From NCBI GenBank assembly GCA_021801795.1, contig JAJYXR010000026.1, positions 5,051-69,050 of the forward strand: a DNA stretch of 64,000 nucleotides, read 5' to 3'. Under the pieces are notes generated by a model. That model did not search any database, had not been told where the DNA came from, and worked only from the letters and a program-made list of their open reading frames with translations. Numbering within the stretch: position 1 is the stretch's first letter; every line of letters starts with the position of its first letter. A program made the translations under genes and the position numbers. Source of the stretch: Actinomycetes bacterium. GTDB lineage: Bacteria; Actinomycetota; Acidimicrobiia; Acidimicrobiales; JAJYXR01. Below are positions 40,128 through 61,362 of the stretch, in pieces.

Positions 40128-40143
40128 CTGACGGCGACGTCAT
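40128..40143. promoter_or_regulatory. Island palindrome copy A: CTGACggcgacGTCAT
   Basis: Located in the divergent hydrolase/P450 promoter gap, directly followed by a TACAAT-like element. One of five copies of CTGAC-N6-GTCA(G/T). Confidence 0.5.
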
Positions 40144-40235
40144 ACAATGTTATGATCGGTTACGGAATCTGTACCCATCCGTCCCTTGGAAGGGGGAACA
40201 TCGCGATGTACGGGGAGCAGGAGGGATCCGAGGGC

Positions 40236-41408
40236 ATGGACCTCTCGAACCTGGATGTGGCACGGGTCGAGGACCCCAGAGCCCTGTTCGAGCAGCTGCG
40301 CGCCGAGCCCGTACTCCAGGTCGGTCCTGGTTTCGCTGCCCTGACCCGGCGCAGCGACATCGAGGCCGCCCTGCGGAACCCGGGGTTGTTCTCCTCTGGT
40401 GCCGAAGCCGTGGCCCTCGGCAACGTGCGGCCACTCATACCTTTGCAGATCGATCCCCCGAAGCACGTGAAGTACCGGCGCATCCTCGACCCACTATTCG
40501 GTCCGAAGCAGGTGGCCCCGATGGAGTCCGAGGTGGTCGCCAGGGTGAAGGAGCTGATGGACGCCTTCATCGACCGCTCCTCGTGCGACTTCCACGAGGA
40601 GCTGGCCGTCCCGCTGCCCTGCAGCGTCTTCCTGGAGCTGATGGGACTGCCGCTCGGTGACCTGGAGCTGTTCCTCGCCATGAAGGAAGGGATAATCCGC
40701 CCGCCGGGTGCCACCCTGGAGGAGCAGGACCCCGAACGGCGCCGTACTGCCGACGCGATATACACCTACTTCTCCGATCTCGTCTGCCAGCGCCGGAAGG
40801 CCCCGGGTGAGGATCTGCTGACCCGCATCATCGACTCGGAGGTGGACGGCGAGCGACTGACCGACGAGGAGGTGGTGGACATCTGCTTCCTCTTCCTCAT
40901 CGCCGGCCTGGACACCGTCACCGACTCGCTGGACTGCTTCTTCGCCTACCTGGCCCAGAACCCCGAGCACAGGCGCCAGATCGTGGAGGATCCCTCGGTG
41001 ATCCCCTCGGCCGTGGAGGAACTGCTCCGCTGGGAGAGCCCCGTTCCGGGGATCGCGAGGGTGGCTACGTCGGACACGGAGGTCGGGGGCTGCCCGGTGA
41101 AGGCCGGTGATCACGTCTTCCTCCTCATCGGCTCCGCGAACACCGACACCGTGGCGACCCCTGGTGTCGACCATGTGGACCTCACCCGTAACCCGAATGC
41201 GCACCTGGCATTCGGCGGCGGTGTGCACAGGTGCCTGGGCTCCCATCTGGCGCGTCTCGAGCTGCGCGTGGTGCTACGCGAGTTCCACCGCCGCATACCC
41301 GACTACTCGCTCGCTCCGGGGACGACCCTTCAGTACACCTCCGGCCTGCGTTCCCTCCATCACCTGCCCCTCGTCTTCTCCGCGGTGGCGGAGCCCGCAG
41401 GTGTGTGA
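40236..41408 (+). CDS. Cytochrome P450
   Basis: Heme-binding loop FGGGVHRCLGSHLA and the EELLRWESP (ExxR) motif. The ATG at 40236 is preceded by GGAGCAGGAGGGA. An alternative start is the ATG at 40206. The track ORF from 39540 is antisense to the hydrolase. Confidence 0.9.
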   Translation: MDLSNLDVARVEDPRALFEQLRAEPVLQVGPGFAALTRRSDIEAALRNPGLFSSGAEAVALGNVRPLIPLQIDPPKHVKYRRILDPLFGPKQVAPMESEVVARVKELMDAFIDRSSCDFHEELAVPLPCSVFLELMGLPLGDLELFLAMKEGIIRPPGATLEEQDPERRRTADAIYTYFSDLVCQRRKAPGEDLLTRIIDSEVDGERLTDEEVVDICFLFLIAGLDTVTDSLDCFFAYLAQNPEHRRQIVEDPSVIPSAVEELLRWESPVPGIARVATSDTEVGGCPVKAGDHVFLLIGSANTDTVATPGVDHVDLTRNPNAHLAFGGGVHRCLGSHLARLELRVVLREFHRRIPDYSLAPGTTLQYTSGLRSLHHLPLVFSAVAEPAGV

Positions 41409-41426
41409 GCCTGGACGGATGGCACG

Positions 41427-41618
41427 ATGCGCCTAGAGCTGGACCAAGACGCCTGCCAGGGCCACGGCCGCTGCTATGCGCTGGCACCGGAGCTCTTCGA
41501 GGCCGACGAGCGCGGCCACTGCCGGCTGCTCATAGACCTGGTCCCCGACGGACTCGAGTCTTCAGCGCGCGACGGGGTGGATAACTGCCCGGAACGGGCT
41601 CTTACACTGAGCGACTAG
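41427..41618 (+). CDS. Small ferredoxin, 3Fe-4S type, P450 redox partner
   Basis: 63 aa with DACQGHGRC ... NCPERA. Located immediately downstream of the P450. Confidence 0.85.
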   Translation: MRLELDQDACQGHGRCYALAPELFEADERGHCRLLIDLVPDGLESSARDGVDNCPERALTLSD

Positions 41619-41728: not shown

Positions 41729-43021
41729 TCAGCGGCCGCGCGAGCCAAGCGAGCCGAGGTCGGTGGCCTTCGTGCGATGCTCGGCCGACCTGCCGGAAGC
41801 GCTCGACGGCCTCGGGGTGACGTCGACGTCCGTGGCCTCGGCCCTGAGGGCCCGAACGGTGCACTGTTCCCGGGGTCGCTTCGAGAAGGGGTCGTAGGAG
41901 AAGATCCGCATCGCGTTCAGGTGGGTGATGCGGTCGATCTCGTCGTCGTCGAGCGCGGCGAGGTACTTCATGGCTGCCTCCGGTGAGGTGGGCCAGGTGG
42001 AGTCGGAGTGCGGGTAGTCGCATTCCCAGCAGACCTGATCGAGGTTCAGGTGGGACCGACTCTCGATGCCGAAGGAGTCGTCGATGAAGCATGTGACGAT
42101 CCGGTCGAGGAAGACCTGGCTCGGCAGCATCCCTCCGAAGCTCTGACCGGTCCAGGCGTGATGGTGCTGGTAGACATAGTCGATTCGCTCCAGGAAGTAG
42201 GGGATCCAGCCGATGCCGCCCTCCGAGAGAGCGATCTTCAGGCTCGGGTACTTGCGCAGGACCGGTGACCATATGAGGTCGGTGGCGGCCTGGACGATGT
42301 TCAGGGGCTGGAGAGATATGAGCACGTCTATCGGGGCGTCAGGTGCCGTTATCACCAGCTGGGAGGACGAGCCTATGTGCATGCAGACCACCGTTCCCTC
42401 GTCGGCGCAGGCTGTCCAGAAGGGATCCCAGTGCTCCGCGTGAAGGCTCGGGTAGCCGAGTTTGGAGGGGTTCTCGGAGAAGGTGACGGCGTGGCAGCCC
42501 TTCGCGGCCATGCGTCGCACCTCGGCTGCCATCAGGTCGGGGTCCCACAGGGGGGGCAGGGCCAGGGGGATGAACCGGCCAGGCTCCGCGCCGCACCAGC
42601 TCTCCACGTGCCAGTCGTTATAGGCCTGGAGCATGGCTAGCCCGAGCTCCTTGTCCTCGGTCCGGGCGAACAGCTGGCCGCAGAACTGGGGAAAGGAGGG
42701 AAAGCACATGGATCCGAGGACGCCGTTCGCGTTCATGTCCCTGATCCGCTCGCGGATGTCGTAGCAGCCCCTGCGCATCTCCTCGAAGGAGGTCGGCTCG
42801 ATCCCGTAGTCCTCGGGCGACCGGCCGGCTACGGCGTTCAGCCCTATGTTCGGTATCTCCGATCCCTCATAGCTCCAGACGTCCGTACCATCGTCCTTAC
42901 GGACCACCTTCGGCTCTCGGCCGCTGAAACGCTTGGGAACCCGGCCCTCGAAGAGGTCTGGTGGTTCGACGACGTGGTCATCGACGCTTACGAGGACAAG
43001 GTCTTCTGCCTGCATGGCCAT
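41729..43021 (-). CDS. Amidohydrolase-2 (ACMSD/LigW-type metal-dependent hydrolase/decarboxylase) family protein
   Basis: The N-terminus LVSVDDHVVEPPDLF is typical, as are later motifs and the roughly 430 aa length. It is a paralogue of 51629-52792. Confidence 0.85.
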   Translation of the reverse strand: MAMQAEDLVLVSVDDHVVEPPDLFEGRVPKRFSGREPKVVRKDDGTDVWSYEGSEIPNIGLNAVAGRSPEDYGIEPTSFEEMRRGCYDIRERIRDMNANGVLGSMCFPSFPQFCGQLFARTEDKELGLAMLQAYNDWHVESWCGAEPGRFIPLALPPLWDPDLMAAEVRRMAAKGCHAVTFSENPSKLGYPSLHAEHWDPFWTACADEGTVVCMHIGSSSQLVITAPDAPIDVLISLQPLNIVQAATDLIWSPVLRKYPSLKIALSEGGIGWIPYFLERIDYVYQHHHAWTGQSFGGMLPSQVFLDRIVTCFIDDSFGIESRSHLNLDQVCWECDYPHSDSTWPTSPEAAMKYLAALDDDEIDRITHLNAMRIFSYDPFSKRPREQCTVRALRAEATDVDVTPRPSSASGRSAEHRTKATDLGSLGSRGR

Positions 43022-43072: not shown

Positions 43073-43088
43073 CTGACATCTACGTCAG
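43073..43088. promoter_or_regulatory. Island palindrome copy B: CTGACatctacGTCAG
   Basis: Located in the divergent amidohydrolase/acyl-CoA ligase promoter gap. Confidence 0.5.
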
Positions 43089-43180: not shown

Positions 43181-44737
43181 GTGGTGAGCGCAGATGCCCG
43201 GCCGAGAGGTATCGCGGCGATAGCCGAGGCCGAGCCCGAGCGGGTGGCGCTCGTGGCCGCAGGCAGGCATGTCAGCTTCTCGGATCTAAACCGGTTCGCG
43301 AACGGGGTCGCGGCAGGCCTCATGGAGGCCGGTGTAGGCCCGGCAGCCAGGGTGGCGGTGATGCTCGGGAACGAACCGGCTCTCTTCTACGCACACCTCG
43401 GGGTGGCCCGGCTGGGGGCTCTCGTGGTGCCGCTCTCCTGGCGCCTGAAGGCAGCGGAGATCGCCTACATCCTGGAGGACTCCGGCGCGTCCTTCTTCAT
43501 CCACGACGGATCGCCAGGAGCACTCGAAGCCGTCTCGCTCACCGGCGTGAGGTCCTGTTCGGCGTCAGACCCGGAGGTCTTCGGTGCTGCCGATCGGCCG
43601 CCGCGCGAGGACTATCTGGGGGCACCGGTGACGACGATGGGCTACACCTCTGGAACGACTGGACGTCCCAAAGGCATCGTCCGGCCTGCGCCGGCCCCAG
43701 CGGCCAGCGCCCCAGCCCAGCCCTTTGCCCGCTTCTGGGGCTTCGGACCAGATGACGTCCACCTGCTGTGCGGTCCCGCCTACCACAGTGCCCCGGGAGC
43801 CTACGCGCACATGACCCTGGTGGAGGGTGGTCGCGTGGTGGTGATGGAGAGGTTCGAGGCCCTGGAGTGCCTGAGGCTCATAGAGGCCGAGGGAGTCACC
43901 ACGACGCACATGGTTCCCGCGAACTTCGTGCGGATCGGGCAGGCACCCTGGGAGGAGTTCGATCGGTCCAGCATACGGAGGGTCCTACATGCAGCAGCCC
44001 CCTGTCCGGTCTCCCTGAAGCTCCAGATGATGAAGGTGTTCCCGCCCGGGAGCCTCTGGGAGTACTACGGGGCCAGCGAGGGCATGGTGTCGGTGGTCTC
44101 CCCCGAGGAGTGGCTGGAACGGCCTGGAACCCTGGGAAAGCCGTTCCCCGGTCTCAGCGTTCGCATCCTCGACGGCAGCGGCCATGACATGCCACCAGGG
44201 GAGGTGGGAGCCATATACGTCTCCTCGATGCCCGGCGCGCGCTTCGAGTACCACGGCGCCCCCGAGAAGACCGCGGAGGCATGGAAGGGCGACTTCTTCA
44301 CCGTAGGTGACCTGGGGTGGCTGGACGAGGACGGGTACCTCTTCCTCGCGGACCGGCGCACCGACCTCATCATTACCGGCGGTGTGAACGTCTATCCTGC
44401 CGAGGTCGAGCAGGCTTTCATGGAGGAGGAGGACGTGGTGGACGTAGCAGTGATCGGCTTACCCGACGACAGGATGGGCCAGCGGGTTCATGCCATCATC
44501 GAGCTGGCTCCCGGTGCTGCTGAGGATGCCGATGACCTGGTCGGACGCGTGGCCAAGCGCCTCGCGGACTTCAAGCTCCCGCGATCGGTGGAGTTCGTGA
44601 AGCAGCTCGAGCGCGAGCCCAACGGGAAGGTCATGAAGGCGAACCTCCGAGACCAGCGCAGAGCAGGGCGATTCCAGGGCACCCTGCACCTGCTGGGTGA
44701 CCTGGGGCGCTCCGGATCTACCGAGCCACTGCCATGA
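43181..44737 (+). CDS. AMP-forming acyl-CoA synthetase (adenylate-forming superfamily)
   Basis: Motif I GYTSGTTGRPKG, later GEVGAIYV, GDLGWLDEDGYLFLADR and the PNGKV lysine motif. The GTG at 43181 lies 7 nt after AGGAGG. Confidence 0.85.
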   Translation: MVSADARPRGIAAIAEAEPERVALVAAGRHVSFSDLNRFANGVAAGLMEAGVGPAARVAVMLGNEPALFYAHLGVARLGALVVPLSWRLKAAEIAYILEDSGASFFIHDGSPGALEAVSLTGVRSCSASDPEVFGAADRPPREDYLGAPVTTMGYTSGTTGRPKGIVRPAPAPAASAPAQPFARFWGFGPDDVHLLCGPAYHSAPGAYAHMTLVEGGRVVVMERFEALECLRLIEAEGVTTTHMVPANFVRIGQAPWEEFDRSSIRRVLHAAAPCPVSLKLQMMKVFPPGSLWEYYGASEGMVSVVSPEEWLERPGTLGKPFPGLSVRILDGSGHDMPPGEVGAIYVSSMPGARFEYHGAPEKTAEAWKGDFFTVGDLGWLDEDGYLFLADRRTDLIITGGVNVYPAEVEQAFMEEEDVVDVAVIGLPDDRMGQRVHAIIELAPGAAEDADDLVGRVAKRLADFKLPRSVEFVKQLEREPNGKVMKANLRDQRRAGRFQGTLHLLGDLGRSGSTEPLP

Positions 44738-44768
44738 ACGCCGCCATGAGCGCTGCCGGGGTCCTGCT

Positions 44769-46301
44769 ATGAGCGCATCGGAAGCCACGGCGGAGGGCGC
44801 TGCCGGAGCCGGTCGGGACCCGGCGCCGACGGAGCATCCGGTTCTGGGTGAGCCGCGCCTCACCGTGGGCGGGTCGCTGGTCGAGTCACGCTCCGGTGCT
44901 CTGTTCGAGAACATGGACCCGGCTACGGAGCTGGTCCTCGGGCACTGCGCCGACGGCTCCACCGAGGACATGCAGGACGCGATCGAGGCTGCCAGGACGG
45001 CCTTCGACACCACCGGCTGGTCCACGGACCCGGCCTTCAGGAGCCGGTGCCTCTACCAGCTCTTCGAGGCCATGGAGGCCCACAAGGAGGAGCTGCGATC
45101 GGTGGTGGTGGCCGAGGCCGGCTCTCCGGTGGCGATGACCTACGCGGTCCAGGTGGAGGAACCTGTCGCGGACATGGCCTACTGGGCAGAGCTGGCCGGC
45201 AGCTACGAGTACGACCGGCCGCTTCCCGACCGCGAGGTCTTCGGTCAGATGCAGCGCCGGCTGGTGGCGCGGGAGGCGGTAGGGGTGGTGGGTGCCATCA
45301 CCCCCTGGAACTTCCCGCTCTACCTGAACGTGGCGAAGCTGGCGCCCGCGCTGGCGGCCGGGAACACGGTGGTGCTGAAGCCGGCTCCCGACACGCCGTG
45401 GTCGGCCACCTGGCTAGGCAGGCTGGCCGTGGAGGAGACCGACATTCCACCGGGCGTGCTGAACGTGGTCGCCTCCTCGGACCATCTGGTGGGTGAGACG
45501 CTCACCAGCGATCCCAGGGTGGACATGATCACCTTCACCGGCTCGACGGCCACCGGACGGCGGATAATGGCCTCGGCCTCGCAGAGCCTGAAGAAGGTCT
45601 TCCTGGAGCTCGGTGGGAAATCCGCGAACATCGTGCTCGATGACGCCGACGTGGCATCAGCGGTTGCCTTCAGCGCCATCGGCGTCTGTGTCCACGCAGG
45701 GCAGGGCTGTGCCATAACCACGCGCCTCTTGCTGGCACGGTCTGTCTACGACGAAGGCATCGAGCTGGCAGCAGAGGCAATGCGAGGCATCGGCGTAGGC
45801 GACCCCTGGGACCCCGCGAACCTGCAGGGGCCACTCATAAACGCCCGCCAGCGGGAGAGGGTCTTTGGCTACGTCGAGGCAGGCAAGGCGAGCGGTGCCA
45901 GACTGGTGCTAGGTGGAGGGGTGCCCGAGGGCCTGGGCCGGGGGTTCTACGTGGAGCCGACCCTCTTCGCTGACGTGGACCCGGACGCGACTCTAGCCCA
46001 GGAGGAGATATTCGGCCCGGTGCTCGTGGTGATCCCCTTCGACGACGACGACGACGCGGTCCGGATAGCCAACCATTCGAGATACGGGCTCTCGGGGGCG
46101 GTGAACAGTGCATCGGAGGAGCGGGCCACCGCGGTCGCGAGGAGGCTGAGGACCGGAACGGTCTCGGTGAACGGGGGGATGTGGTTCTCCCCCGACGTCC
46201 CCTTCGGAGGGTATCGACAGAGCGGGATCGGCCGCGAGAACGGCATCGAGGGCTTCGAGGAGTACCTCGAGGTGAAGGCCCTCGCGTTCCCTAAGTCCTA
46301 A
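44769..46301 (+). CDS. NAD(P)-dependent aldehyde dehydrogenase
   Basis: FTGSTATGRRI, ELGGKSANIV and the catalytic-Cys region GQGCAITTR. The start at ATG 44769 is approximate. Confidence 0.9.
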   Translation: MSASEATAEGAAGAGRDPAPTEHPVLGEPRLTVGGSLVESRSGALFENMDPATELVLGHCADGSTEDMQDAIEAARTAFDTTGWSTDPAFRSRCLYQLFEAMEAHKEELRSVVVAEAGSPVAMTYAVQVEEPVADMAYWAELAGSYEYDRPLPDREVFGQMQRRLVAREAVGVVGAITPWNFPLYLNVAKLAPALAAGNTVVLKPAPDTPWSATWLGRLAVEETDIPPGVLNVVASSDHLVGETLTSDPRVDMITFTGSTATGRRIMASASQSLKKVFLELGGKSANIVLDDADVASAVAFSAIGVCVHAGQGCAITTRLLLARSVYDEGIELAAEAMRGIGVGDPWDPANLQGPLINARQRERVFGYVEAGKASGARLVLGGGVPEGLGRGFYVEPTLFADVDPDATLAQEEIFGPVLVVIPFDDDDDAVRIANHSRYGLSGAVNSASEERATAVARRLRTGTVSVNGGMWFSPDVPFGGYRQSGIGRENGIEGFEEYLEVKALAFPKS

Positions 46302-46404: not shown

Positions 46405-48813
46405 TCATTCCAGCACCCCGTCGCGGGCCAGCCTGTCGATCTCGGAGCCCTCGAGGCCGAGCAGCTCGGAGAGGACGAGGTCGTTGTGCTCCCCGAGGCA
46501 GGGACTGGGTCGGCTGTACCCACCGGGGGTGCTGGCCAGGCGGAACCCATTGCGCTCGTAGCCGCAGTCGCCCATGCAGGGGTGGTGGAGAACCGCGAAG
46601 TGGTCGCGCGCGGCCAGCTGGGGATCTGCCCAGGCATCCGCGAAGTCCGACACAGGCACCGCCTCCACCCCGATGGCTTGGAGCTGCTCGGCGACTTGAT
46701 CTGCGCCAAGCTCGGCCGTCCAGAGCGCTACCATGCTCTCTACCTCGGACACCCTGGCCATCCGGCCACCTAGAGCCGCGAGCCTCTCGTCCAGGGCATC
46801 GCCCCCCAGGACGCCAGCGAGCCTGGCCCAACTGGCGTCGTCGTTACAGGCGATCGCCACGAAGCGGTCGTCACCCCTGGTGGGGAAGATGCCGTGGGGC
46901 ACGGCCCGTTCGGAGCGGTTGCCGATGCGCTCGGATACCCGGGAGTTCACCACGAAGTCGACCAGCCAGGGCGAGAGCGTGTAGGCCGCCGCCTCCACCT
47001 GGCTGACGTCTATGTGCAGGCCCCGGCCGGTGCGCCTCCTGTAGAGGAGCCCGGCGGCGAGCGCGGTGGCGACGAAGCGGGGAGCCAGGGAGTCGGTGAT
47101 GGTCCCGTAGGGGCCAACCGGTTCCCGATCAGGCCATCCGGTCAGGAAGTTGTAGCCGGCCAGAGCGGAGCCCTGGCCGCCGAAGCCGGGGTAGTCGCGG
47201 TGGGGGCCAGTCTGTCCCTGGAGACAGGAGCTCACCATCACCAGGTCGGGCTTGTGCTCTAGGAGCGTGGTGTAGTCCAGCCCCAGACCCTCGAGTGCCC
47301 GTGGCGCGAAGTTCTCCACCAGCGCGTCGGCCCAGGACACCAGACGGAGCGCCAGGGCCTTTCCCTCGGGGTGCTTCAGGTTCACGGTTATGCCCAGCTT
47401 CCCCACGTTCAAGGAGTCGAACATCTCCGATCCGTCGAGGCCGCATGGGTTGTCCGGCCGCATCCCATAGGTGCGGAGGAAGTCCGGCCGTGAGCGCGAT
47501 TCGATCCTCACCACCGTGGCACCGTGCTCCGCGAAGTAGCGGAGCGCGATCGGACCTGCGGCCCCGGTGCCGAGCTCGACCAGGCGGATTCCCTCCCAGG
47601 CCATCCGACCGGCGTCCGGAGGCTCGTCTTGGCGCCAGAGGTGACTGGCGCGGGAAGACCGACCGGTGTCCGGCACCGCTCCAGACGCCACCCCTCCTGG
47701 AGGTGTCTCGGCAGGATGTGACTGCGGTTGGCCGGCTGGGGACCTCGGTCGGGGTCGCTCGATGGAGCCGTCGGGGTGACGCAGCTGGAGGAAGGAGAGG
47801 GGAAAGTCATCCACGAAGGAAAAGGGCCCGAAGAAGCCCCGGTGCCTGAGCTGGGTGCTGGCCAACAGCTCGGCGGGGGAGTTGATGGGTGCGAGCATGA
47901 GGTTCGTGGCGCAGGCGATCTCGTAGAGCTCCCCCATGGTGCGGAGCGAGAAGTAGGTGGCGATTGGGGCCGATATGGCCTCCAGCTCGCCGGGAGCCAG
48001 GGCGGTGTGGTCGTAGCTCTCCCAGTCCCGGTCGGTCAGTGCGCTGGTGGCCAGGCCGGCTTCCTCGACCAGTCTGGTGATGGTGCGGAGGTTGGCCACC
48101 CTGGCCTTGCCACCTCTCAGGCCGAAGGAGACGAAACCGTCCGCACATGGCCAGATCTCGCGGCTCGCGCCGATGTTCGCGCCGGAACGCCTGCCTCGGT
48201 TCGAGGTGCGTGGGTAACGGCCGGGCCAGCCCATCGAGGCGATCATGACCGACTCCTGTATGGACACGTCCACCTGCTGGGGCACACCGGAGGCCAGAGC
48301 AGAGAGCGCTGCGAGCGCGGCCTCGGGACCGACATGGGCATAGGAGACCGGCTCCCTGCAGCGCACAGGGGGGCGGTCGGGGTCCCCGGTGCAGTAGAGG
48401 TTCCCCGTGGATGCCATGATCCCGATGTCGGTGGCCTGCCAGTCAGATCTCGGACCTCCCAGCCCGAAGGGGGTCACCGACACCCATACGGCATGCCCAT
48501 AGTTGGTCGGGTCCAGGGCTAGTGTCCCAGGCCAGCCTGGCGTGTCGATGACTATGTGGCAGCCGGCCAGCAGCTCCTGAAGACGGGGATCGTCGGCGCC
48601 GCTCACGGGCAGGATCGACTTCCCTGCGTTCCAGGTCGTGTAGCGAAGGGAGATCCCGTCGGGACCGAGCGGTGGCAGTTGGCGGAGTGGGTCGTCGGGT
48701 AGCTCTGCCCGGACGACCTCGGCACCGAGGTCTCCGAGGATCCTTCCGGTCATCGCGGCAGGCTCGCCTGCCAGGTCGACTACCTTGACCGATTCTAGAA
48801 GGGACTCGTTCAC
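46405..48813 (-). CDS. Tandem-fused family III (CaiB/BaiF) CoA-transferase, two complete modules in one 802-aa chain
   Basis: Two N-terminal-type Rossmann starts (VKVVDLAGEPAAMTGRILGDLGAEVV and IRLVELGTGAAGPIALRYFAEHGATVV) about 420 aa apart, joined by a Pro/Ser/Gly/Arg-rich linker. Confidence 0.85.
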   Translation of the reverse strand: MNESLLESVKVVDLAGEPAAMTGRILGDLGAEVVRAELPDDPLRQLPPLGPDGISLRYTTWNAGKSILPVSGADDPRLQELLAGCHIVIDTPGWPGTLALDPTNYGHAVWVSVTPFGLGGPRSDWQATDIGIMASTGNLYCTGDPDRPPVRCREPVSYAHVGPEAALAALSALASGVPQQVDVSIQESVMIASMGWPGRYPRTSNRGRRSGANIGASREIWPCADGFVSFGLRGGKARVANLRTITRLVEEAGLATSALTDRDWESYDHTALAPGELEAISAPIATYFSLRTMGELYEIACATNLMLAPINSPAELLASTQLRHRGFFGPFSFVDDFPLSFLQLRHPDGSIERPRPRSPAGQPQSHPAETPPGGVASGAVPDTGRSSRASHLWRQDEPPDAGRMAWEGIRLVELGTGAAGPIALRYFAEHGATVVRIESRSRPDFLRTYGMRPDNPCGLDGSEMFDSLNVGKLGITVNLKHPEGKALALRLVSWADALVENFAPRALEGLGLDYTTLLEHKPDLVMVSSCLQGQTGPHRDYPGFGGQGSALAGYNFLTGWPDREPVGPYGTITDSLAPRFVATALAAGLLYRRRTGRGLHIDVSQVEAAAYTLSPWLVDFVVNSRVSERIGNRSERAVPHGIFPTRGDDRFVAIACNDDASWARLAGVLGGDALDERLAALGGRMARVSEVESMVALWTAELGADQVAEQLQAIGVEAVPVSDFADAWADPQLAARDHFAVLHHPCMGDCGYERNGFRLASTPGGYSRPSPCLGEHNDLVLSELLGLEGSEIDRLARDGVLE

Positions 48814-48886
48814 ATCTGTGCCTGGAGCTGGGTATCGCCCGGCATGCCCGCGGTCGCGCCCCGGGCATAGGTCGGGAATCGGGAAG

Positions 48887-50147: not shown

Positions 50148-50157
50148 GCTGGGTAGC

Positions 50158-52792: not shown

Positions 52793-52810
52793 CCCCGTCG
52801 CCTGTGGAAC

Positions 52811-52866
52811 CCGAAGACCTCGTGAAGCCCCGAAGACCTCGTGAAGCCCCGAAGACCTCGTGAAGC
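52811..52866. repeat. 19-bp tandem repeat x3 (CCGAAGACCTCGTGAAGCC) between the amidohydrolase and SDR genes
   Basis: Copies at 52811-52829, 52830-52848 and 52849-52866. Each copy carries GTGA. Confidence 0.9.
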
Positions 52867-52882
52867 AAGGATCCGAGCCGAT

Positions 52883-53749: not shown

Positions 53750-53753
53750 GCCG

Positions 53754-56063
53754 ATGGTCGCCCCACGCGCCGCCATGGAGCCGGCTCCGAAGCGGCTCGA
53801 TCTCGAAAGGTTCTTCCATCCCGAAGCAGTGGCGCTGGTCGGTTCGGTGAACCGGAAGGCAGATCCCGCGAACCTGGCCCGCTACTACGACAGTCGCTGG
53901 GGCGAGGGGCGCTGGTACCTGGTGAACGTCCACGGCGGCTCCGTGGGCGACATCCCCATCTACGAGCACGTCACCTCGGTGCCGGTGCCCCTGACCCTCG
54001 CTGTGGTGAACGTGGGGACCAAGCTGGTGGCAGGGGTCATGGAGGAGTGCGGCGTCGGCGGGGTTCCCTTCGTGCTCGTCTTCAGCGCGGGCTTCAGCGA
54101 GGTGGGACCCGAAGGTGCGGCCCTGGAGCGTGAGGTCGGCCAGATCGCGAAGCGTTACGGGATAAGGGTTTTCGGACCGAACACGAACACGAACGCCTTC
54201 GAACGTCTTGCCCAGCCATCGCGGGTCCGCGGTGGCAGGATCGGGCTGGTGACCCAGAGCGGCCATCAGGGACGTCCGATCGTCCAGGGGACCGAGTTCG
54301 GCGTAGCCTTCAGCCGCTGGGTCCCTACCGGCAACGAGCTGGACCTGGAGGCCGCCGACTTCATCGAGTACTTTGCCGGCGACGACGAGACATCGGTGGT
54401 GGCTGCCTACCTGGAGGGGTTCCGGGACCCGGCGAAGCTCCGCCGTGCACTGGAGGCGGCGAACGCGGCCGCGAAGCCCATCGTGGTCCTGAAGATCGGT
54501 TCCACCGCGGCAGGCAGCCGGATGGCTGCCTCGCACACCGGGCACCTGGCTGGCTCCGACGCGGTGGTGGACGGTCTCTTTGCCCAGCACGCGGTGGTGC
54601 GCGTGCGGGATCTCGACGAGCTGCTGGAGACCTCCGCGCTCTTCGCGAAGCTCCCGCGTCCGACTGGTCCGAACTGCGCGCTCTACTCCATATCGGGAGG
54701 ATCGGGTGCCCTGATGGCTGAGGTAGCAGAGTCCCATGGGGTGCCGGTCCCTGTCCTTTCGGAGAAGACCCGCAAGGCCCTCCACGACGTGGTCCCCGAG
54801 TACCTCACCGTCTCCAACCCGGTGGACAACGGTGCGGAGTTCCTGGTGCGGGCGCCAGTGGAGGCGCGCCGGAGGGTGTTCGAGCTCATCTGCGGCGACC
54901 CGACGGTGGATCTCGTGGTGGTGGGCCTCACCGGGGCGCTAGGACGCCTCACCGACCGGTTCGCCGAGGACATAGTCGCCTTTGCCGACGACCTGGCCAA
55001 GCCGGTGGTGGTCACCTGGAACTCCTTCAAGACCGACCAGGAGGGCTTCCGCCGGCTGGCCGACTCGGGGCTGCCGATGTTCCGCTCCTTCCGTAACTGC
55101 TTCGCAGCCATAGCTGCCTTCTCCCGCTACCAGGCAGCCTCGAAGAGCTTCAGGCACAGGAAGCCTTTCCCGGTCCGCGTCCCCTCCGAGGCCCGCATGG
55201 TGCTGGCCAGGCTCGATCCGAGAATGGCGGGCGACGACGGGCCGGTGCTCGCCGATCCGGGCAAGCTAGCCCTGCCGGGCCAGCCAGCCGATCCGGGCAA
55301 GCCAGCCCTGCCGGGCCAGCCAGCCGATCCGGGCAAGCCAGCCCTGCCGGGTGGGCCAGGCGGGCGGGTGGTGCTCGACGAGGCCTCCGCTGCTGGCCTG
55401 CTCGCGTCCTTTGGTATCCCGCTGGCCGACCAGGCTGTGGCGGCTACCGCTAGCGAGGCAGCGCGCGTGGCCGGTCAGATCGGCTTCCCTGTGGTCATGA
55501 AGATCGCGTCCGTGGACTTTCCCCACAAGTCCGATGCCGGGCTGGTGCGCCTCGGGGTCTCTTCTTCATCCGAGGCAAGGCGGGTGTTCGCGGAGATCAT
55601 GGCCGGGGCGAAGCAGGCCAACCGGCATGCCAGGATCGACGGGGTCACCGTCCAGCGTGAGGTGAGGGACTCTACGGAGATGATCGTGGGGGTTACGAGG
55701 GATCCGGTCCTCGGTCCCGCGGTGATGGTCGGCACCGGGGGGGTCTTCGCGGAGGTGATGGCAGACGTGGCCGTGCGCCCGCTCCCCCTGGACCGGCTGG
55801 ACGCAGAGGAGATGCTGGCCTCCCTACGAGGCGCGGCACTGCTCCATGGTGCCCGCGGGCGTCCGAAGGCCGACGTGAAGGCCCTGGTGGAGGTGGTCGT
55901 GTCGGTAGCCCGTATGGCCTCGGCCTGCTCGGCCAGCCTGCTGGAGCTCGACCTGAACCCCCTGGCGGTCCTGGCGAAGGGAAAGGGAGCGGTGGCTCTC
56001 GACGCGCTGGTGGTGATGTCCTCCACGACCTTGTCGAAGGAGCACCGATGGACCTGGAGCTGA
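53754..56063 (+). CDS. ADP-forming acyl-CoA synthetase (acetate-CoA ligase [ADP-forming] family; CoA-binding, ligase and ATP-grasp domains fused)
   Basis: N-terminal CoA-binding region (FFHPEAVALVGS), a succinyl-CoA-synthetase-like middle with SHTGHLAG (phosphohistidine loop) and a C-terminal ATP-grasp (GFPVVMKI). 769 aa. Confidence 0.85.
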   Translation: MVAPRAAMEPAPKRLDLERFFHPEAVALVGSVNRKADPANLARYYDSRWGEGRWYLVNVHGGSVGDIPIYEHVTSVPVPLTLAVVNVGTKLVAGVMEECGVGGVPFVLVFSAGFSEVGPEGAALEREVGQIAKRYGIRVFGPNTNTNAFERLAQPSRVRGGRIGLVTQSGHQGRPIVQGTEFGVAFSRWVPTGNELDLEAADFIEYFAGDDETSVVAAYLEGFRDPAKLRRALEAANAAAKPIVVLKIGSTAAGSRMAASHTGHLAGSDAVVDGLFAQHAVVRVRDLDELLETSALFAKLPRPTGPNCALYSISGGSGALMAEVAESHGVPVPVLSEKTRKALHDVVPEYLTVSNPVDNGAEFLVRAPVEARRRVFELICGDPTVDLVVVGLTGALGRLTDRFAEDIVAFADDLAKPVVVTWNSFKTDQEGFRRLADSGLPMFRSFRNCFAAIAAFSRYQAASKSFRHRKPFPVRVPSEARMVLARLDPRMAGDDGPVLADPGKLALPGQPADPGKPALPGQPADPGKPALPGGPGGRVVLDEASAAGLLASFGIPLADQAVAATASEAARVAGQIGFPVVMKIASVDFPHKSDAGLVRLGVSSSSEARRVFAEIMAGAKQANRHARIDGVTVQREVRDSTEMIVGVTRDPVLGPAVMVGTGGVFAEVMADVAVRPLPLDRLDAEEMLASLRGAALLHGARGRPKADVKALVEVVVSVARMASACSASLLELDLNPLAVLAKGKGAVALDALVVMSSTTLSKEHRWTWS
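55251..55355. repeat. 36-bp in-frame tandem repeat, about 2.9 copies, in the inter-domain linker of the ADP-forming synthetase
   Basis: Copies start at 55251, 55287 and 55323. It encodes ADPGKLALPGQP, ADPGKPALPGQP and ADPGKPALPGGP. Confidence 0.9.
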
Positions 56064-57208
56064 CTGACGAGCAGCATGACCTCCAGGCAGCAGTGGCGTC
56101 GGTGCTGGCCGCTCGCTGCCCGGTGTCCCTCGCTCGTCATGTGGTCGAGCAGGATCCCGAGTCACCCGCGGAGCTGGCGGGCTTCGCGCGCACGACCCGG
56201 GAGCTCGACTGGCAGCGGCTGAATATCCCGGTGGATCACGGTGGTCTGGGTCTGGGCCTGGTGGAGGTGGTGGTGCTGGCCGAGCAGATGGGCCGGGTGA
56301 TCGCGCCAGGACCGCTACTCGCGACCGTCTCCCAGTTCGTGCCGATGCTGACCGAGCTGGGAAGCTATGAGCAATGCAAGCGGTTTCTGGCCCCGGTGGC
56401 TGCAGGTGATCTCTCGGGGACCCTCGCGCTGGCCGAGCGGCCGGGTGGCTTCGGCCTCCAGGCTCTGGGCGCTGGTGCGGTGGAGAGCGGGGGCGCCTGG
56501 ACGCTCTCGGGCACGAAGAGTTTCGTGATGGAGGCAGGCCGGGCAGAGGAGATGGTGGTGGTGGCCCGGCTGGCCGGCAGCCGGGCAGGTGAAGGCCTTG
56601 CCGCGTTCGTCGTGCCTGTGGCGGCAGAGCGAGTCGTGCCGATGGCGGTCATCGACGAGTCGAGGCAGCTTGCCAGGGTGGATCTCGACGGAATGCGGGT
56701 GGAGCCCGATCGAGCGCTGGGTGTCCCTGGAGAATGCTCAGCGGGCCTGGTCCGTGCCCTGCAGCAGTCCACGGTGGCGCTCTGTGCCGAGGCCGTCGGG
56801 ACCTGTCAGACGGTGCTCGATACCGTCATCGCCCATGTGAGCACCCGGGAGCAGTTCGGGGTGAAGATCGGGTCGTTCCAGGCCCTGAAGCACAAGGCGG
56901 CCGATATGTACCTGGCCCTGGAATCGGCCCGCGCCACCACCTACTTCGCGGCCGCGGCCATCGCAGAGGACGACCCCCGGCGCGAGATCGCCACCTCGGT
57001 CGCCAAGGCGTCTGTGGGCGACTGCGTGAGGCTGGTCGCCGAGGAGGGCATCCAATGCCTGGGGGGCATCGCGTACACCTGGGAGCACGACATGCATCTG
57101 CTGGTGAAGAGGGCGAAGACCGCGTCGATGCTGTTCGGCACCACAGCAGAGCACCACCGGCGCATAGCAGGCCTGATCGGCCTCGGAGGCGGCCAGCGGG
57201 AGCGCTAG
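56048..57208 (+). CDS. Acyl-CoA dehydrogenase
   Basis: ACAD fold motifs throughout (N-terminal LTDEQ, C-terminal GGIAYTWEHDMHL). It overlaps the upstream gene by 16 nt. Confidence 0.9.
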   Translation: MDLELTDEQHDLQAAVASVLAARCPVSLARHVVEQDPESPAELAGFARTTRELDWQRLNIPVDHGGLGLGLVEVVVLAEQMGRVIAPGPLLATVSQFVPMLTELGSYEQCKRFLAPVAAGDLSGTLALAERPGGFGLQALGAGAVESGGAWTLSGTKSFVMEAGRAEEMVVVARLAGSRAGEGLAAFVVPVAAERVVPMAVIDESRQLARVDLDGMRVEPDRALGVPGECSAGLVRALQQSTVALCAEAVGTCQTVLDTVIAHVSTREQFGVKIGSFQALKHKAADMYLALESARATTYFAAAAIAEDDPRREIATSVAKASVGDCVRLVAEEGIQCLGGIAYTWEHDMHLLVKRAKTASMLFGTTAEHHRRIAGLIGLGGGQRER

Positions 57209-58752
57209 CCGGTCCCTGGGTACCCCCCGCCACCGAAGCGCTCGTCGAGAGCGTCGTAGTCCAGAGCGAATCCCTGCCTGGGCAGCGAGTCGACCAGTTC
57301 CACGGACTTAGGCTTCTTGTAGGAGGCGATCCGCTGGCGGCAGTGCTCTATGAGCTCGGCTTCGTCGGCAGCCTCACCTGGCTTCAGGACGACTATGGCC
57401 TTCACGTTCTGTCCCCAGGTCCTGTCGGGCACGCCGATCACGGCTGCATCGGCTACGGCGGGATGGGTCTTCAGGCATGCCTCGACCTCCGCCGGGTAGA
57501 TGTTCTCTGCCGCGGACTTCACGATCCGGGTAAGCGGGGCGATGAAGGTGAGCGACCCGTCGTCCTCGATCCGTCCTAGGTCGCCGGTGTGGTGCCATCC
57601 TCCGCGCCGGCGCTCTGCGTTCAGCTCGGGCCGGTCGTGGTATCCGTTCATCACGGTCGGCCCCTTTATGACTATCTCCCCGGTCTCCCCCGGGGGGACA
57701 TCCTCGCCAGAAGGTCCGAGCACGGCCACCTGGATGAATGCAGGCGGCCGCCCATGCGTACCCTTGCACGGCCCCAGCGCGCCGAAGGTGGCGAGACCCA
57801 TGACCTCGGTCTGACCGTAGCCACCGGGGTGGCGACCCCAGGGACTGTCGTCCACGGTGATCATGGCCGTCCAGGCCGGCTTTCCCGCGAAGGTCCTGAG
57901 GGAGCTGAGGTCGTAGCGACCGCCGGCGTTCGCCTCTACCATCTGGTCCATGGTCGGGCCCATGACGAAGGCCCCGGTGCAGCGTTCCTCCGACACCAGG
58001 CGGCAGAGCTCCTCGGCGTCCACACGGGGAGTGAAGACGTTCTTCCCGCCCATCACGAAGGTCGCGAGGGTGGTCATGAGGGTGGCCACGTGGAACAGCG
58101 GCCCGCAGTTCAGGTAGGCGTAGCCGGCATCGATTCCCTGGAGCTGGGCCACCAGCGCCCCCTGGGTCACCAGCGCACGGTGTGCCAGCAGGGCGCCGTT
58201 CGGCGTTCCGCTGAAGGCCGCGGTGTAGATCATGAGCACCGGCTCTGCGTCGGATACCTCGACGGGCACAGGGTCTCCGCCGGATCCTTCCAGGAGAGCC
58301 TCGTAGCCTTCGGCGCCTGGATCGTCGTGGCAGAGCCACCTGGTGTCGCGCACAGCTTCAGGAGCTTCCTTCTCTGCCAGGGATCTTGCTTCTCGGACCG
58401 TGGAGCCGATCTCGGAGAGCTGCCAGACGACGACCCCCGGGCTGGCGTCTCCGAGCACGAAGGCCAGCTCCTCTGCGCTCTGGCGCCAGTTCACCGGGCA
58501 GAGGACTGCCCCGAGACGCCCGCACGCGAGTAGGCATTCGAGCAGCCGGTGGCAGTTCTGGGCCAACCAGAGCACCCGGTCGCCCCTGGTGACGCCGAGG
58601 GACTCCAGCAGGACCGCGAGCCGATCCACACGGGCGGCCAGGGTCGCGTAGTCGATCCGATCCGATCCACATACTGCCGCCGGAGACCCCGGCCTGGTGC
58701 GCCGGTGGCCCGCCAGGAGGTCACCCATGGTGAGCTCTCTCGGGGTGCTCAC
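57205..58752 (-). CDS. AMP-forming acyl-CoA synthetase (adenylate-forming superfamily)
   Basis: YTAAFSGTPNGA (degenerate motif I), GEIVIKGP, GDLGRIEDDGSL and the final Lys region. The GTG overlaps the stop of the upstream PaaK-like gene (GTGA). Confidence 0.88.
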   Translation of the reverse strand: MSTPRELTMGDLLAGHRRTRPGSPAAVCGSDRIDYATLAARVDRLAVLLESLGVTRGDRVLWLAQNCHRLLECLLACGRLGAVLCPVNWRQSAEELAFVLGDASPGVVVWQLSEIGSTVREARSLAEKEAPEAVRDTRWLCHDDPGAEGYEALLEGSGGDPVPVEVSDAEPVLMIYTAAFSGTPNGALLAHRALVTQGALVAQLQGIDAGYAYLNCGPLFHVATLMTTLATFVMGGKNVFTPRVDAEELCRLVSEERCTGAFVMGPTMDQMVEANAGGRYDLSSLRTFAGKPAWTAMITVDDSPWGRHPGGYGQTEVMGLATFGALGPCKGTHGRPPAFIQVAVLGPSGEDVPPGETGEIVIKGPTVMNGYHDRPELNAERRRGGWHHTGDLGRIEDDGSLTFIAPLTRIVKSAAENIYPAEVEACLKTHPAVADAAVIGVPDRTWGQNVKAIVVLKPGEAADEAELIEHCRQRIASYKKPKSVELVDSLPRQGFALDYDALDERFGGGGYPGTG

Positions 58753-60086
58753 TGGTCGACCACCCGGGAGGACTTGTAGCCGGACCTGGGGATGCTTCCC
58801 CGGTCGAGCAGCTCTATGGTCGTCGTGATGGAAAGAGCCTCCCTGATCGCAGCCGCGCAGCGCGAGGCGATGTCCTCGTCGTGCAGCCGGTCCGCGCCAG
58901 AGCCCTCGGAGCGCTCGACGCGCACGACGAGCGGTTCACCTGCCTGGTCTGGGCGGGGGCGTACCAGCTGCCATTCGAGGGTCGGCTCGCTCACCCCCCC
59001 CACCTGCCTCAGGGCAGTCTCCAGCTCAGATGGCTGGAACCTCTTCCCCTGGACCGCTACGAGGTCCTTGAAGCGGCCCCCCCAGAGCGCCCGGATGCTG
59101 GTCTCGCCGCATTCGCAGGGGCCGCGCAGCACCGCGCAGGCCTCCTCCAGGTCGTAGCGCAGGAGGCCGTTGTCCCGGTCGAGGGTGGTGACCACCAGGT
59201 TCCCCCACTCCCCCTCGGGGACCTCCCTCCCGGTCTCGGGGTCGACTGCCTGCACGATCGCCCAGTCCTCGCAGAGGTGGGCACCGGGCGACTGGCCGCA
59301 GGGGCCGCCTACGTAGGCATAGCACTCGGCGCCCGCGGTCATGAGAGGCATTCCCTTCCCCAGGCCGAAGCCGGGCAGCCCCTTGAACTCCAGGCCCGCG
59401 TCGAGAGGATCGATGCCGAGCTTCGCCGCGACCTCGAAGAAACGACCGGTGGAGAACCCCATGAAGGGGATGTCGGGCTTCACCTTGGTCCAGAAGCGCA
59501 GTCCCTGCTCCGCGAGCTCGTCGGTGTCGGGAGGGGGCACCCATATGTTCAGGAAACCGAAATACTCGTAGGCTCCCGAGAGCATCGCACCGCCCCCGTA
59601 GAGGTAGGCAGGGTGAGCGTGGGTGACGATCATGCCGGGACGGTGCCCGAAGCGCCACCAGGTCCGGGCCGCCGACTCGTACTCGATCCAGAGGTCCCGG
59701 CGGGTCCAGATGCTTATGGTGGGGTCCCCGGTGGTCCCGGTGGAGGTGCCGAGACGCACCGCCTGCCGGGGGCTCGTGAAGCGGTAGTCGCCCCATGGGG
59801 GGAGCTCCGCCTCGGAGTCCCGCAGGTCCTGCTTGACCGTGAGGGGAATCCTGTGGAGGTCGGCTATGCCTCCGAAGTCCTCAGGTGACTCGATCCCTGC
59901 ACTTCGCAGCTTTCGCCCGAACAGCGGCACCGGGGTCCCCAGAGCTCGGGCCACCAGCTCCTTCAGGCGGCGATCCTGCAGCCCGTGGAGCTGCTCGGGG
60001 TCCATGGTCTGGACAGCGGGATCCCAGTATGCCTGGGAGTGGTCTCGGGGCGTGGGCCCCAGTACCTCGGGTCCGTCCAGTGGCAT
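58749..60086 (-). CDS. Phenylacetate-CoA ligase (PaaK)-like / F390-synthetase family adenylating enzyme
   Basis: The N-terminal pattern (MDPEQLHGLQDRRLKELV...), LHRIPLTVKQDLRD and STGTTGDPT are typical of PaaK-like ligases. Confidence 0.8.
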   Translation of the reverse strand: MPLDGPEVLGPTPRDHSQAYWDPAVQTMDPEQLHGLQDRRLKELVARALGTPVPLFGRKLRSAGIESPEDFGGIADLHRIPLTVKQDLRDSEAELPPWGDYRFTSPRQAVRLGTSTGTTGDPTISIWTRRDLWIEYESAARTWWRFGHRPGMIVTHAHPAYLYGGGAMLSGAYEYFGFLNIWVPPPDTDELAEQGLRFWTKVKPDIPFMGFSTGRFFEVAAKLGIDPLDAGLEFKGLPGFGLGKGMPLMTAGAECYAYVGGPCGQSPGAHLCEDWAIVQAVDPETGREVPEGEWGNLVVTTLDRDNGLLRYDLEEACAVLRGPCECGETSIRALWGGRFKDLVAVQGKRFQPSELETALRQVGGVSEPTLEWQLVRPRPDQAGEPLVVRVERSEGSGADRLHDEDIASRCAAAIREALSITTTIELLDRGSIPRSGYKSSRVVDQ

Positions 60087-60122
60087 CTCTCACCTCCGTT
60101 GGTCGGTGTGGCTCGCGGTGGC

Positions 60123-61325
60123 TCAGCGCCTCGGAAGGCCGAGCACCCTTTCGGCGATTATGTTCCGCTGGATCTCCGAGGTTCCCCCTGCGATGGTGCC
60201 GGCGAAGGACTGCAGGTAGTGGACGATCCAGGCATCCTCCTCGCGGCTGCCGAACGAGGGTGCCAGGTGGAGGCTCACGTCTGTGCCCGCGGGTCCCAGT
60301 GCCTCGGCTACGTCGCGGGTGATCCTGCGGCGCAGCTCGGAGCCCATCAGCTTGAGCACGGAGTGCTCCGGTGCCTCCAGGCCCTTCACGGACTTCGAGA
60401 AACCTCGGTACCCGAGGAGCTTCAGCGCCTGGGCGCGTACGTAGGCATCTGCGATCATGTCGGCTACCAGGGGGTCCTTCCCGATCTCCGGCACCCCCTC
60501 GGGGGGGTGCGCGGCAACCGCTACGACCCTGTCCAGAAGTGTCTCGATCCCGGCCGCCTCCCGGATCCAGAGCATCCCCCGCTCGTGGGCAAGGGACCCG
60601 CCCGCGATCGACCAGCCCCGGTTCAGCTCCCCGAGAAGGTTCTCCGCGGGTACCTCCACGTCGGTGAAGAAGACCTCGTTGAAATCCGCGTGGAAGCGGT
60701 CTGTGAGCTCCGGAAGTGGCCTCGTCTCGATCCCCTCGGAGCGCATGTCGACTATCAGCACGCTTATGCCCTGGTGCTTCGGGGCTTCGGGGTCGGTGCG
60801 CACGAAGCAGAGGCACCAGTCCGCGTGGTGGGCGCCCGAGGTCCAGACCTTCTGCCCGTTCACCACGAACCTGTCGCCCTGCAGGTCGGCCCGGGTCCGC
60901 AGTCCGGCCAGGTCGCTCCCGGCCCCCGGCTCGCTCATACCGATGCACCAGGAGATCTCGGCCTTCAGGGTCGCGAGCGCGAACCTCTCCTTCTGAGCCG
61001 GGTTCCCCCAGTCGAGTATCGAGGGGGTGACGATGGAGAGGCCCTGGGGGTTAGTGGTCCTAGGCACCTCCAGGCGCGCCAGCTCCTCGAAGTAGACCAT
61101 CTGCTGGAGGGCACTGGCGTTACGCCCGCCCAGCTCTGGTGGCCAGCCCGGTACCAGCCATCCGTTGTCGAAGAGCAGCCGCTGCCAGCTACGTGCCCAT
61201 TCGGGGATGTAGGCAGACGAGAGCACCGGCTCGGAGCGATCCTCCATCGGGGGCAGGTTCGATCCGAGCCAGCCTCTGAGCTCGGATCTGAAGGCCTCTG
61301 TCTCCTCGTCGTAGTGCAGCTGCAC
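60123..61325 (-). CDS. Acyl-CoA dehydrogenase
   Basis: ACAD motifs (GMSEPGAGSDLAGL, GGTSEIQRNIIAERVLGLP). GTG start at 61325. Confidence 0.9.
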   Translation of the reverse strand: MQLHYDEETEAFRSELRGWLGSNLPPMEDRSEPVLSSAYIPEWARSWQRLLFDNGWLVPGWPPELGGRNASALQQMVYFEELARLEVPRTTNPQGLSIVTPSILDWGNPAQKERFALATLKAEISWCIGMSEPGAGSDLAGLRTRADLQGDRFVVNGQKVWTSGAHHADWCLCFVRTDPEAPKHQGISVLIVDMRSEGIETRPLPELTDRFHADFNEVFFTDVEVPAENLLGELNRGWSIAGGSLAHERGMLWIREAAGIETLLDRVVAVAAHPPEGVPEIGKDPLVADMIADAYVRAQALKLLGYRGFSKSVKGLEAPEHSVLKLMGSELRRRITRDVAEALGPAGTDVSLHLAPSFGSREEDAWIVHYLQSFAGTIAGGTSEIQRNIIAERVLGLPRR

Positions 61326-61346
61326 GCCTAGATCGTAGCCTCTGGG

Positions 61347-61362
61347 CTGACGTGTGTGTCAG
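61347..61362. promoter_or_regulatory. Island palindrome copy E: CTGACgtgtgtGTCAG
   Basis: Located in the 39-bp gap between the thiolase-fold gene stop (61365) and the ACAD start (61325). Confidence 0.5.

Follow-up and report, generated by a model that had tools for sequence, protein, structure and literature searches.

The 64,000-nucleotide stretch of Acidimicrobiales DNA analyzed here (contig JAJYXR010000026.1 of assembly GCA_021801795.1, positions 5,051 to 69,050; hereafter the window) carries a 16-bp palindrome, CTGAC-N6-GTCAK, that recurs in the promoter gaps of an island of catabolic genes. On the basis of sequence comparisons, we consider it likely that this palindrome serves as operator for a TetR-family repressor that would act as a homodimer, would belong to an unnamed subfamily confined to Acidimicrobiales and would repress a catabolic regulon of several operons. 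The reading is carried by the position of the sites at promoters, by their conservation across genomes, by their physical association with two groups of TetR genes, and by a recognition helix that is identical in both of these groups. Acidimicrobiales are abundant in peat and soil metagenomes and have remained almost entirely uncultured. To our knowledge, no regulon has been described for this order, and the motif string has matched nothing in a full-text literature search.

A palindrome confined to promoters and conserved in relatives

The preliminary description of this DNA, which had been made from the letters alone, reported five copies of the palindrome, and an exact search of the 64-kb window has recovered all five, at 40128, 43073, 50602, 51560, and 61347, and no sixth copy elsewhere in it. 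Counted as strand-matches of CTGAC-N6-GTCAK, eight have been observed where 0.40 are expected from shuffles, and none of 100 shuffles reached eight; the looser core TGAC-N6-GTCA has returned the same five sites only, with 0.63 expected in the 64 kb. Allowing one mismatch, the window gains CTGACGTCACAGTCGG at 40105, located 23 bp from the 40128 copy, and an unrelated match at 20088 in the rnpA-dnaA intergenic region that looks like chance. The copies are the following.

40105..40120: CTGACGTCACAGTCGG, auxiliary weaker copy in the hydrolase/cytochrome P450 gap, one mismatch
40128..40143: CTGACGGCGACGTCAT, operator copy 1, hydrolase/P450 divergent gap
43073..43088: CTGACATCTACGTCAG, operator copy 2, Amidohydro_2/acyl-coenzyme A (acyl-CoA) ligase divergent gap
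50602..50617: CTGACGGCCACGTCAG, operator copy 3, DUF35/enoyl-CoA hydratase divergent gap
51560..51575: CTGACACGGGAGTCAT, operator copy 4, upstream of the second Amidohydro_2 operon
61347..61362: CTGACGTGTGTGTCAG, operator copy 5, upstream of the acyl-CoA dehydrogenase gene at 60123-61325

All five sites and the weaker copy at 40105 sit in gaps of the catabolic island, which begins at ∼38.8 kb and continues past the end of the window. According to the gene coordinates, only ∼0.94 kb of the 23.8 kb of island DNA (∼4%) is non-coding, so that the probability of finding five of five sites in gaps by chance is ∼1e-7, and the confinement to promoter gaps that had been described earlier is thereby borne out. 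An enumeration of all 5-mer palindromic dyads with spacers of 0-12 (13,312 tests, window only) has placed CTGAC-N6-GTCAG at the top rank, with three perfect copies compared to 0.055 expected (p = 2.6e-5), a value that fails correction for the number of tests. The window by itself is therefore only suggestive, and the proof of the significance of the palindrome comes from the position of the sites and from other genomes.

The consensus has a core cTGACr-N4-yGTCAg, often with AAC and GTT flanks. Within the source genome, the G, A, and C of the half-site are invariant in 20 of 20 half-sites, giving the core TGAC-N6-GTCA, and the 6-bp spacing between the half-sites has been found fixed in 87 distinct perfect sites. 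Dyad symmetry with fixed half-site spacing, as seen here, is expected of a TetR operator, whose length is ∼14-20 bp. Following the palindrome, AGAAC(T/G) is conserved in the amidohydrolase and the thiolase/DUF2889 promoters (window 51576-51585; class A/B sites, loci L005-L052), in the forms GTCAG-AGAACT and GTCGG-AGAACG, and (G/A)AAC precedes many sites. These conserved flanks may be part of a longer operator of ∼22 bp (AAC-CTGAC-N6-GTCAG-GTT) or may represent a second signal.

For the comparison with other genomes, the second Amidohydro_2 protein of the island has been searched against one genome per species, which returned 80 loci. The orthologous promoters were counted in the close Acidimicrobiales loci with enough upstream DNA, taking a site within 260 nucleotides (nt) upstream as present. 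The site at 51560 is kept in 36 of these 41 promoters, usually reading aGTAAG-CTGACACGAAAGTCAG-AGAACT, and in none of 35 Dehalococcoidia, Binatia, other-phylum, or distant-paralogue loci. The 50602 site has been found conserved in 20 of 38 relatives, copy 2 (43073) has orthologues in L005, L011, L034, and L083, copy 5 (61347) has orthologues in L015, L025, L027, and L046, and an extra class of conserved sites occupies the thiolase/DUF2889 gap of relatives, where the sites end in GTCGG like the weaker copy at 40105. Altogether, the close Acidimicrobiales loci hold 57 perfect palindromes in 764 kb, compared to 1.2 expected, and not one occurs in the 597 kb of non-Acidimicrobiales loci (Dehalococcoidia, Binatia, and others). 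These cross-genome counts exclude chance. The intergenic status of the sites in relatives has been taken from orthologous-class reasoning and database gene calls, as open reading frame (ORF) calls based on the GC content of third codon positions are misled by high-GC shadow ORFs. The regulon signature that had been proposed from the five copies is thus upheld, the sites being confined to promoters, conserved in orthologous promoters of relatives, and absent from comparable DNA of other phyla.

The amidohydrolase loci of Binatia and of metagenome-assembled genomes labeled "Deltaproteobacteria" (L065-L071, L075, L076, and L084) carry another conserved palindrome, TGTGACAT(T/G)GGTCACAG, which has a core TGAC-N4-GTCA of different spacing and lies ∼60-120 nt upstream of the match start; L072 and L078 have TTCCGAAT-N2-CCGTTCGG in its place. 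Judged from these sequences, the operator connected to the same amidohydrolase operon seems to differ from phylum to phylum.

Each site of the source genome is accompanied by a -10-like TANNNT at most 21 nt away that is aimed at a Pfam-verified gene. Copy 1 abuts TACAAT (40143-40148), and 17 nt separate its left half from TG-TATGAT (40151-40156) downstream. Copy 2 is flanked by a minus-strand TATGAT (43069-43064) at a distance of 3 nt and by a plus-strand TAAGCT (43110) at 21 nt, and copy 3 has a minus-strand TAGGAT (50592-50587) 9 nt off and a plus-strand TATCCT upstream. As the TAGGAT directly precedes the ATG codons at 50586 and 50580, the DUF35 transcript looks leaderless. The first two bases of copy 4 are overlapped by the -10 box TAGACT (51556-51561). 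Next to copy 5, a minus-strand TACGAT (61337-61332) is found at a distance of 9 nt, and the GTG start at 61325 follows this box after 6 nt, so that the acyl-CoA dehydrogenase transcript looks leaderless as well. Operator and -10 box are separated by anything from -2 to 21 nt, the transcription starts being predictions, and the palindrome is therefore not a fixed promoter element. Depending on the site, it overlaps the -35 or the -10 box, the spacer between them, or the start region, as would be expected of a repressor; the sites are intergenic and, with the starts as predicted, overlap core promoter elements in the manner of TetR operators.

The TetR gene and its relatives

Four more copies of the palindrome have been found on the same contig beyond the window.

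Beyond the window: palindrome in the aldehyde dehydrogenase/Amidohydro_2 gap
Beyond the window: palindrome in the FGGY kinase/2-hydroxyacid dehydrogenase gap
Beyond the window: CTGACGCCTGCGTCTG, followed after 2 nt by a TACCAT box and after 17 nt by the start codon of the TetR gene
Beyond the window: ATGACGCACACGTCAG, in the divergent gap from which the operon with the TetR gene starts; a TAAGGT box, located before a leaderless GTG, is 17 nt away

The last two copies belong to an operon in which the genes for an acyl-CoA dehydrogenase, a hydratase, a CoA-transferase, a short-chain dehydrogenase (SDR), and an alcohol dehydrogenase are followed, in the last position, by a gene for a TetR_N protein of 281 residues, which ends 12.9 kb past window position 64000. 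A TetR_N gene is hence located in or next to the predicted regulon and has the palindrome in its own promoter. In the GTCAT variants of the palindrome, the final CAT/ATG is often the start codon (L173, 12782-12797; operon-head sites of L090-L117), as at the start of the FGGY kinase and in GTCATGctg at the operon head; in these variants, the operator overlaps the first codon of apparently leaderless genes.

The Pfam TetR_N match of the source-genome protein has E = 1e-16, and the fold predicted for the protein agrees with that of TetR repressors, among them FasR and KstR, both of which bind acyl-CoA, with TM-scores of 0.55-0.68 (normalized to target length) and 18-25% identity, which denotes a generic TetR fold. 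Over the helix-turn-helix (HTH) region, the best PDB sequence matches have been YvdT, 1vi0, 3whb, and 5gp9. The protein falls into no named family, as all NCBIfam scores are far below cutoff and the sequence and fold searches of the PDB give generic TetR only. Before the HTH, an N-terminal tail of ∼65 residues is found that is basic, rich in Pro, Ser, and Lys, and holds three VRKPAVS(P/S)S repeats (L087, 4564-4760); it is modeled as disordered, with a predicted local distance difference test (pLDDT) score below 50.

A metagenome scan with the source-genome TetR has yielded 80 loci, which fall into two groups. Group 1 comprises the orthologues (66-82% identity, synteny kept), in which the operon head, ∼5 kb upstream of the TetR gene, has a conserved CTGAC-N6-GTCATgct, and gaacCTGAC-N6-GTCATgatcggCCATTA lies ∼2.6 kb downstream of the gene; the group 1 loci contain 22 sites in 197 kb, compared to 0.6 expected. 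In a second genome of the same synteny, TetR gene and amidohydrolase site are found 32 kb apart on one contig, with palindromes at the expected gaps. Group 2 comprises paralogues of 45-60% identity, which diverge from an operon for a family-I CoA-transferase and ATP-binding cassette (ABC) uptake. In 40 of 49 of these loci, a perfect palindrome, mostly CTGACCACCGTGTCAG, has been found in the divergent gap between the TetR and the CoA-transferase gene (44 of 49 when one mismatch is allowed), and a second perfect copy lies ∼3 kb off in a ureidoglycolate-lyase-like/cupin gap, adding up to 55 perfect copies in 318 kb of group 2 loci compared to 0.5 expected. The N-terminal arm and the recognition helix of the HTH (PAS.R.LR.QG..TMR.LLDAAM ... 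TSHGTFYLYFSNKEDLLRAL) are invariant across groups 1 and 2, for which reason both groups should read the same half-site. The basic tail has been seen in group 2, too. Cluster representatives of the TetR subfamily number 3,848 and 1,281, and wherever the source names the organism, it belongs to Acidimicrobiales. Between the palindrome and the CoA-transferase gene of group 2 loci (L138, L156, L158, L169, and others), a stretch (aaaaATGAGGTCGGACCAGGG) is conserved that could encode a short upstream ORF, M(R/M)SDQG..., out of frame with the CoA-transferase gene; judged by its sequence, it may represent a leader peptide or a conserved leader RNA.

Within the window, the part of the island that it covers holds no candidate regulator gene, in agreement with the preliminary description. 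The only transcription-factor-like genes of the window encode a PadR (4054-4752), an ArsR-type (36942-37271), and a RodZ-like HTH protein (37419-38732). All three lie in the housekeeping half, and they have been dismissed as the regulator, as the palindrome is near none of them. When the ORFs starting within ∼220 nt of any palindrome in the 80 loci orthologous to the amidohydrolase locus were clustered, no regulator was found to adjoin a site; the clusters are enzymes (amidohydrolase, DUF35, thiolase, hydratase, DUF2889, dehydrogenases, and SDR), and candidates of 150 residues, which have the size of MarR proteins, have turned out to be DUF35 proteins.

Competing explanations and proposed mechanism

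Several observations weigh against the assignment of the palindrome to these TetR proteins. The copy CTGACGCCTGCGTCTG next to the TetR start codon has one mismatch (GTCTG), and such matches arise ∼1.2-1.5 times per 21 kb by chance. Apart from this copy of the source genome, no palindrome has been found directly before the group 1 TetR genes, which have a conserved GTGAC-TACGAT box only, so that autoregulation in group 1 would have to run via the operon head. In none of the 80 loci has a TetR homologue been detected at 10 kb or less from the amidohydrolase site (tblastn, both TetR groups), and the linkage of TetR to the sites is therefore loose. In addition, the modeled recognition-helix segment (residues 108-120) is of low confidence, with pLDDT below 50. 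The TetR genes could be members of the regulon and not its regulator, in which case the palindrome would be the operator of a different, unseen dimeric factor encoded elsewhere in the genome (e.g., CRP/FNR-, IclR-, MarR-, or GntR-type). We regard this as unlikely. Besides the loose linkage and the lack of a directly upstream site in most group 1 TetR genes, the 5-6-5 palindrome itself is compatible with such a factor, as it suits many HTH families; however, the neighbors of the sites are all enzymes, with no other regulator in ∼1.9 Mb of related loci, the palindrome occupies the divergent promoter of the TetR gene itself in 90% of group 2, an arrangement that is classic for TetR, and the recognition helix is identical in both TetR groups. 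Regarding the suggestion of the preliminary description that the operator is of CRP/FNR or dimeric HTH type, the dimeric HTH wording covers TetR and stands, whereas the evidence favors a TetR-type repressor over CRP/FNR. The operators of CRP and FNR follow a TGTGA-N6-TCACA-like or a TTGAT-N4-ATCAA-like consensus. The half-site CTGAC is neither TGTGA nor TTGAT, and no gene for a CRP-type or other cyclic-nucleotide-binding protein is among those annotated in the 64-kb window and the ∼24 kb of contig beyond.

It is very improbable that the half-site CTGAC(A/G) is itself a promoter element, either -35-like (cf. TTGACA) or the target of an alternative sigma factor, and that the palindrome represents back-to-back divergent promoters. 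The spacing of exactly 17 nt between CTGACG at 40128 and TG-TATGAT would fit such an element, some half-sites lie 17-19 nt from a -10 box, and several sites are located in divergent gaps. Yet half-site and -10 box stand ∼12 to 27 nt apart, and at two sites the -10 box reaches into the palindrome; the fixed 16-18 nt of a sigma-70 -35 element has not been found at the sites, the 17-nt spacing fitting the 40128 site only. Moreover, copies 4 and 5 serve one gene direction and have nevertheless kept both halves, and the invariant 6-bp spacing of the 87 distinct sites would be needless for an independent pair of promoters. Even less credence can be given to a role in nucleic-acid structure, such as an RNA hairpin in 5' leaders, a DNA repeat resembling repetitive extragenic palindromes, or a cruciform. 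All copies are able to fold into a 5-bp stem and a 6-nt loop, and one (43088-43073) has been caught by a terminator-like scan, but the stem is very short, and across the 87 distinct sites it is invariant while the loop varies, which means that there is no stem covariation. For several copies, transcription is predicted to start within the palindrome or beyond it, on its downstream side, the sites precede genes and are not found at 3' ends, and no Rfam family matches the island: the only match of the Rfam covariance models in the window at gathering score is a tRNA (29391-29464), located in the housekeeping half.

If the palindrome is the operator of the TetR-family repressor, a TetR dimer would occupy the 16 bp with half-site centers 11 bp apart and would cover the core promoters of ten or more transcription units over ∼48 kb, its own operon included, so that RNA polymerase would be kept away. 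The repressor would be released when its C-terminal domain is bound by an intermediate of the pathway, which is probably an acyl-CoA thioester produced by the ligases or CoA-transferases of the island. An acyl-CoA ligand is plausible because of the gene content and because acyl-CoA-binding TetR proteins are among the fold matches. We infer that the protein binds the palindrome and that it represses rather than activates, and the sites of the window may be served by either paralogue or by both. The repressor would thereby switch on and off a large island of genes for the breakdown of fats or organic acids in uncultured soil Acidimicrobiales.

A bolder extension of this scheme is offered tentatively, and we would sooner doubt than expect it. 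The two paralogous TetR groups may be sensors with diverged ligand domains that share an invariant DNA-reading head, long basic tails, and one operator "word", so that a single dispersed regulon, with dozens of catabolic genes, would answer to two different metabolites in the uncultured Acidimicrobiales that abound in peat and soil, and the operator would be physically joined to the -10 boxes and the start codons of genes without leaders. If true, this would represent a lineage-wide regulatory code and a handle on a degradation pathway that involves a P450, an amidohydrolase, and a thiolase with DUF35. As for the single operator-repressor pair, it would delimit a coherent regulon of at least ∼48 kb, with dispersed members, around an uncharacterized catabolic pathway. 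The TetR protein would offer a cheap experimental route to the inducing metabolite and hence to the substrate, and the motif is a pattern with which thousands of related contigs from metagenomes could be searched and annotated.

The catabolic island and comparison with known TetR systems

The genes predicted to be regulated within the window are listed below. Pfam has confirmed all the gene labels that had previously been given to the five gaps, and the ATG start at 51629 has been taken from the gene call of L001 and the peptide MGKMGHNY.

38838..40025, minus strand: beta-lactamase-family hydrolase/esterase (PF00144), diverging from the gap with the 40105 and 40128 copies; predicted regulated
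40206..41618, plus strand: cytochrome P450 and small 4Fe-4S ferredoxin operon (PF00067, PF13459); predicted regulated
41729..43021, minus strand: Amidohydro_2 enzyme (PF04909); predicted regulated
43181..46301, plus strand: acyl-CoA ligase and aldehyde dehydrogenase operon (PF00501, PF00171); predicted regulated
46405..50586, minus strand: operon of DUF35 (ChsH2-like OB/zinc ribbon), SCP-x-type thiolase, and double family-III CoA-transferase (PF01796, PF12172, PF22691, PF02515); predicted regulated
50655..51512, plus strand: enoyl-CoA hydratase (PF00378); predicted regulated
51629..57208, plus strand: operon of Amidohydro_2, SDR, ADP-forming acyl-CoA synthetase, and acyl-CoA dehydrogenase (Pfam); predicted regulated
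57205..61325, minus strand: operon of acyl-CoA dehydrogenase, PaaK-like ligase, and AMP-binding ligase (Pfam); predicted regulated

The window is 99.5-100% identical to a 151.8-kb metagenome contig of the ENA. Its positions 1-38800 represent the neighborhood of the replication origin, with parAB, gidB, rnpA, dnaA (∼20342-21868), dnaN, recF, DciA, gyrB, and gyrA, and a complex-I/Mrp-like operon, headed by the ArsR-type HTH gene (minus strand), follows the origin genes. A 40-bp unit (TCACCGGGCACCGCCTCCGCTGCGCGGGCTCTCGCGGGGG) is perfectly repeated 2.8 times in tandem at 62663-62773, where the 3' end of a DUF35 gene meets the start of a thiolase gene on the minus strand. Assemblies differ in the number of repeats, as the sister contig is one copy shorter, and the difference alters the DUF35 C-terminus, giving 112 or 156 residues in the gene calls.

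Among the TetR systems described so far, McbR of Corynebacterium glutamicum has an operator, TAGAC-N6-GTCTA, that serves a multi-gene regulon (PMC2723105). It shares with the palindrome described here the identical 5-6-5 geometry, the inner GAC...GTC, and an actinobacterial host; the outer bases of the half-site are CT here and TA in McbR, which controls sulfur and methionine metabolism, and the comparison is one of operator geometry and not of a specific sequence relationship between the proteins. FadR-type regulators (FadR/YsiA of Bacillus subtilis and FadR of Thermus thermophilus) are the best PDB sequence matches over the HTH region, and FasR (which binds C20-CoA), KstR (a CoA ester), and PvrA have been found among the fold matches. 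FadR, FasR, and PvrA control beta-oxidation-type genes via acyl-CoA ligands; an acyl-CoA may act likewise here, although the similarity to these proteins is that of the generic TetR fold only. In SimR, another member of the TetR family, a flexible basic N-terminal arm contacts the minor groove. By analogy, the basic and probably disordered tail of both TetR groups described here may be such a minor-groove arm, and it differs from that of SimR in being longer and in its VRKPAVSPS repeats.

The closest resemblance in layout is to KstR and KstR2, which control cholesterol catabolism in Mycobacterium and Rhodococcus. There, too, a TetR repressor has the same palindrome in its own promoter and in many promoters of a lipid/acyl-CoA catabolic island (PMC1995591; PMC3068626); KstR was defined from the copy in its own promoter together with 16-31 intergenic copies that overlap -10 regions (PMC1995591). 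Two paralogous TetR regulators are involved there and two paralogous TetR groups here, and the gene content is similar, with acyl-CoA dehydrogenases, hydratases, ligases, a P450, and a thiolase with DUF35. The protein is nevertheless not KstR itself, since its NCBIfam KstR score is 27 bits compared to a cutoff of 280, and the motif is CTGAC-N6-GTCAG (16 bp) instead of TnnAACnnGTTnnA (14 bp). The lineage is Acidimicrobiales and not Mycobacteriales, and, in contrast to KstR and KstR2, which have distinct motifs, the paralogues found here share both recognition helix and motif. In concept, the KstR paradigm is repeated and nothing is overturned: the system is a new instance of a well-known kind of switch.

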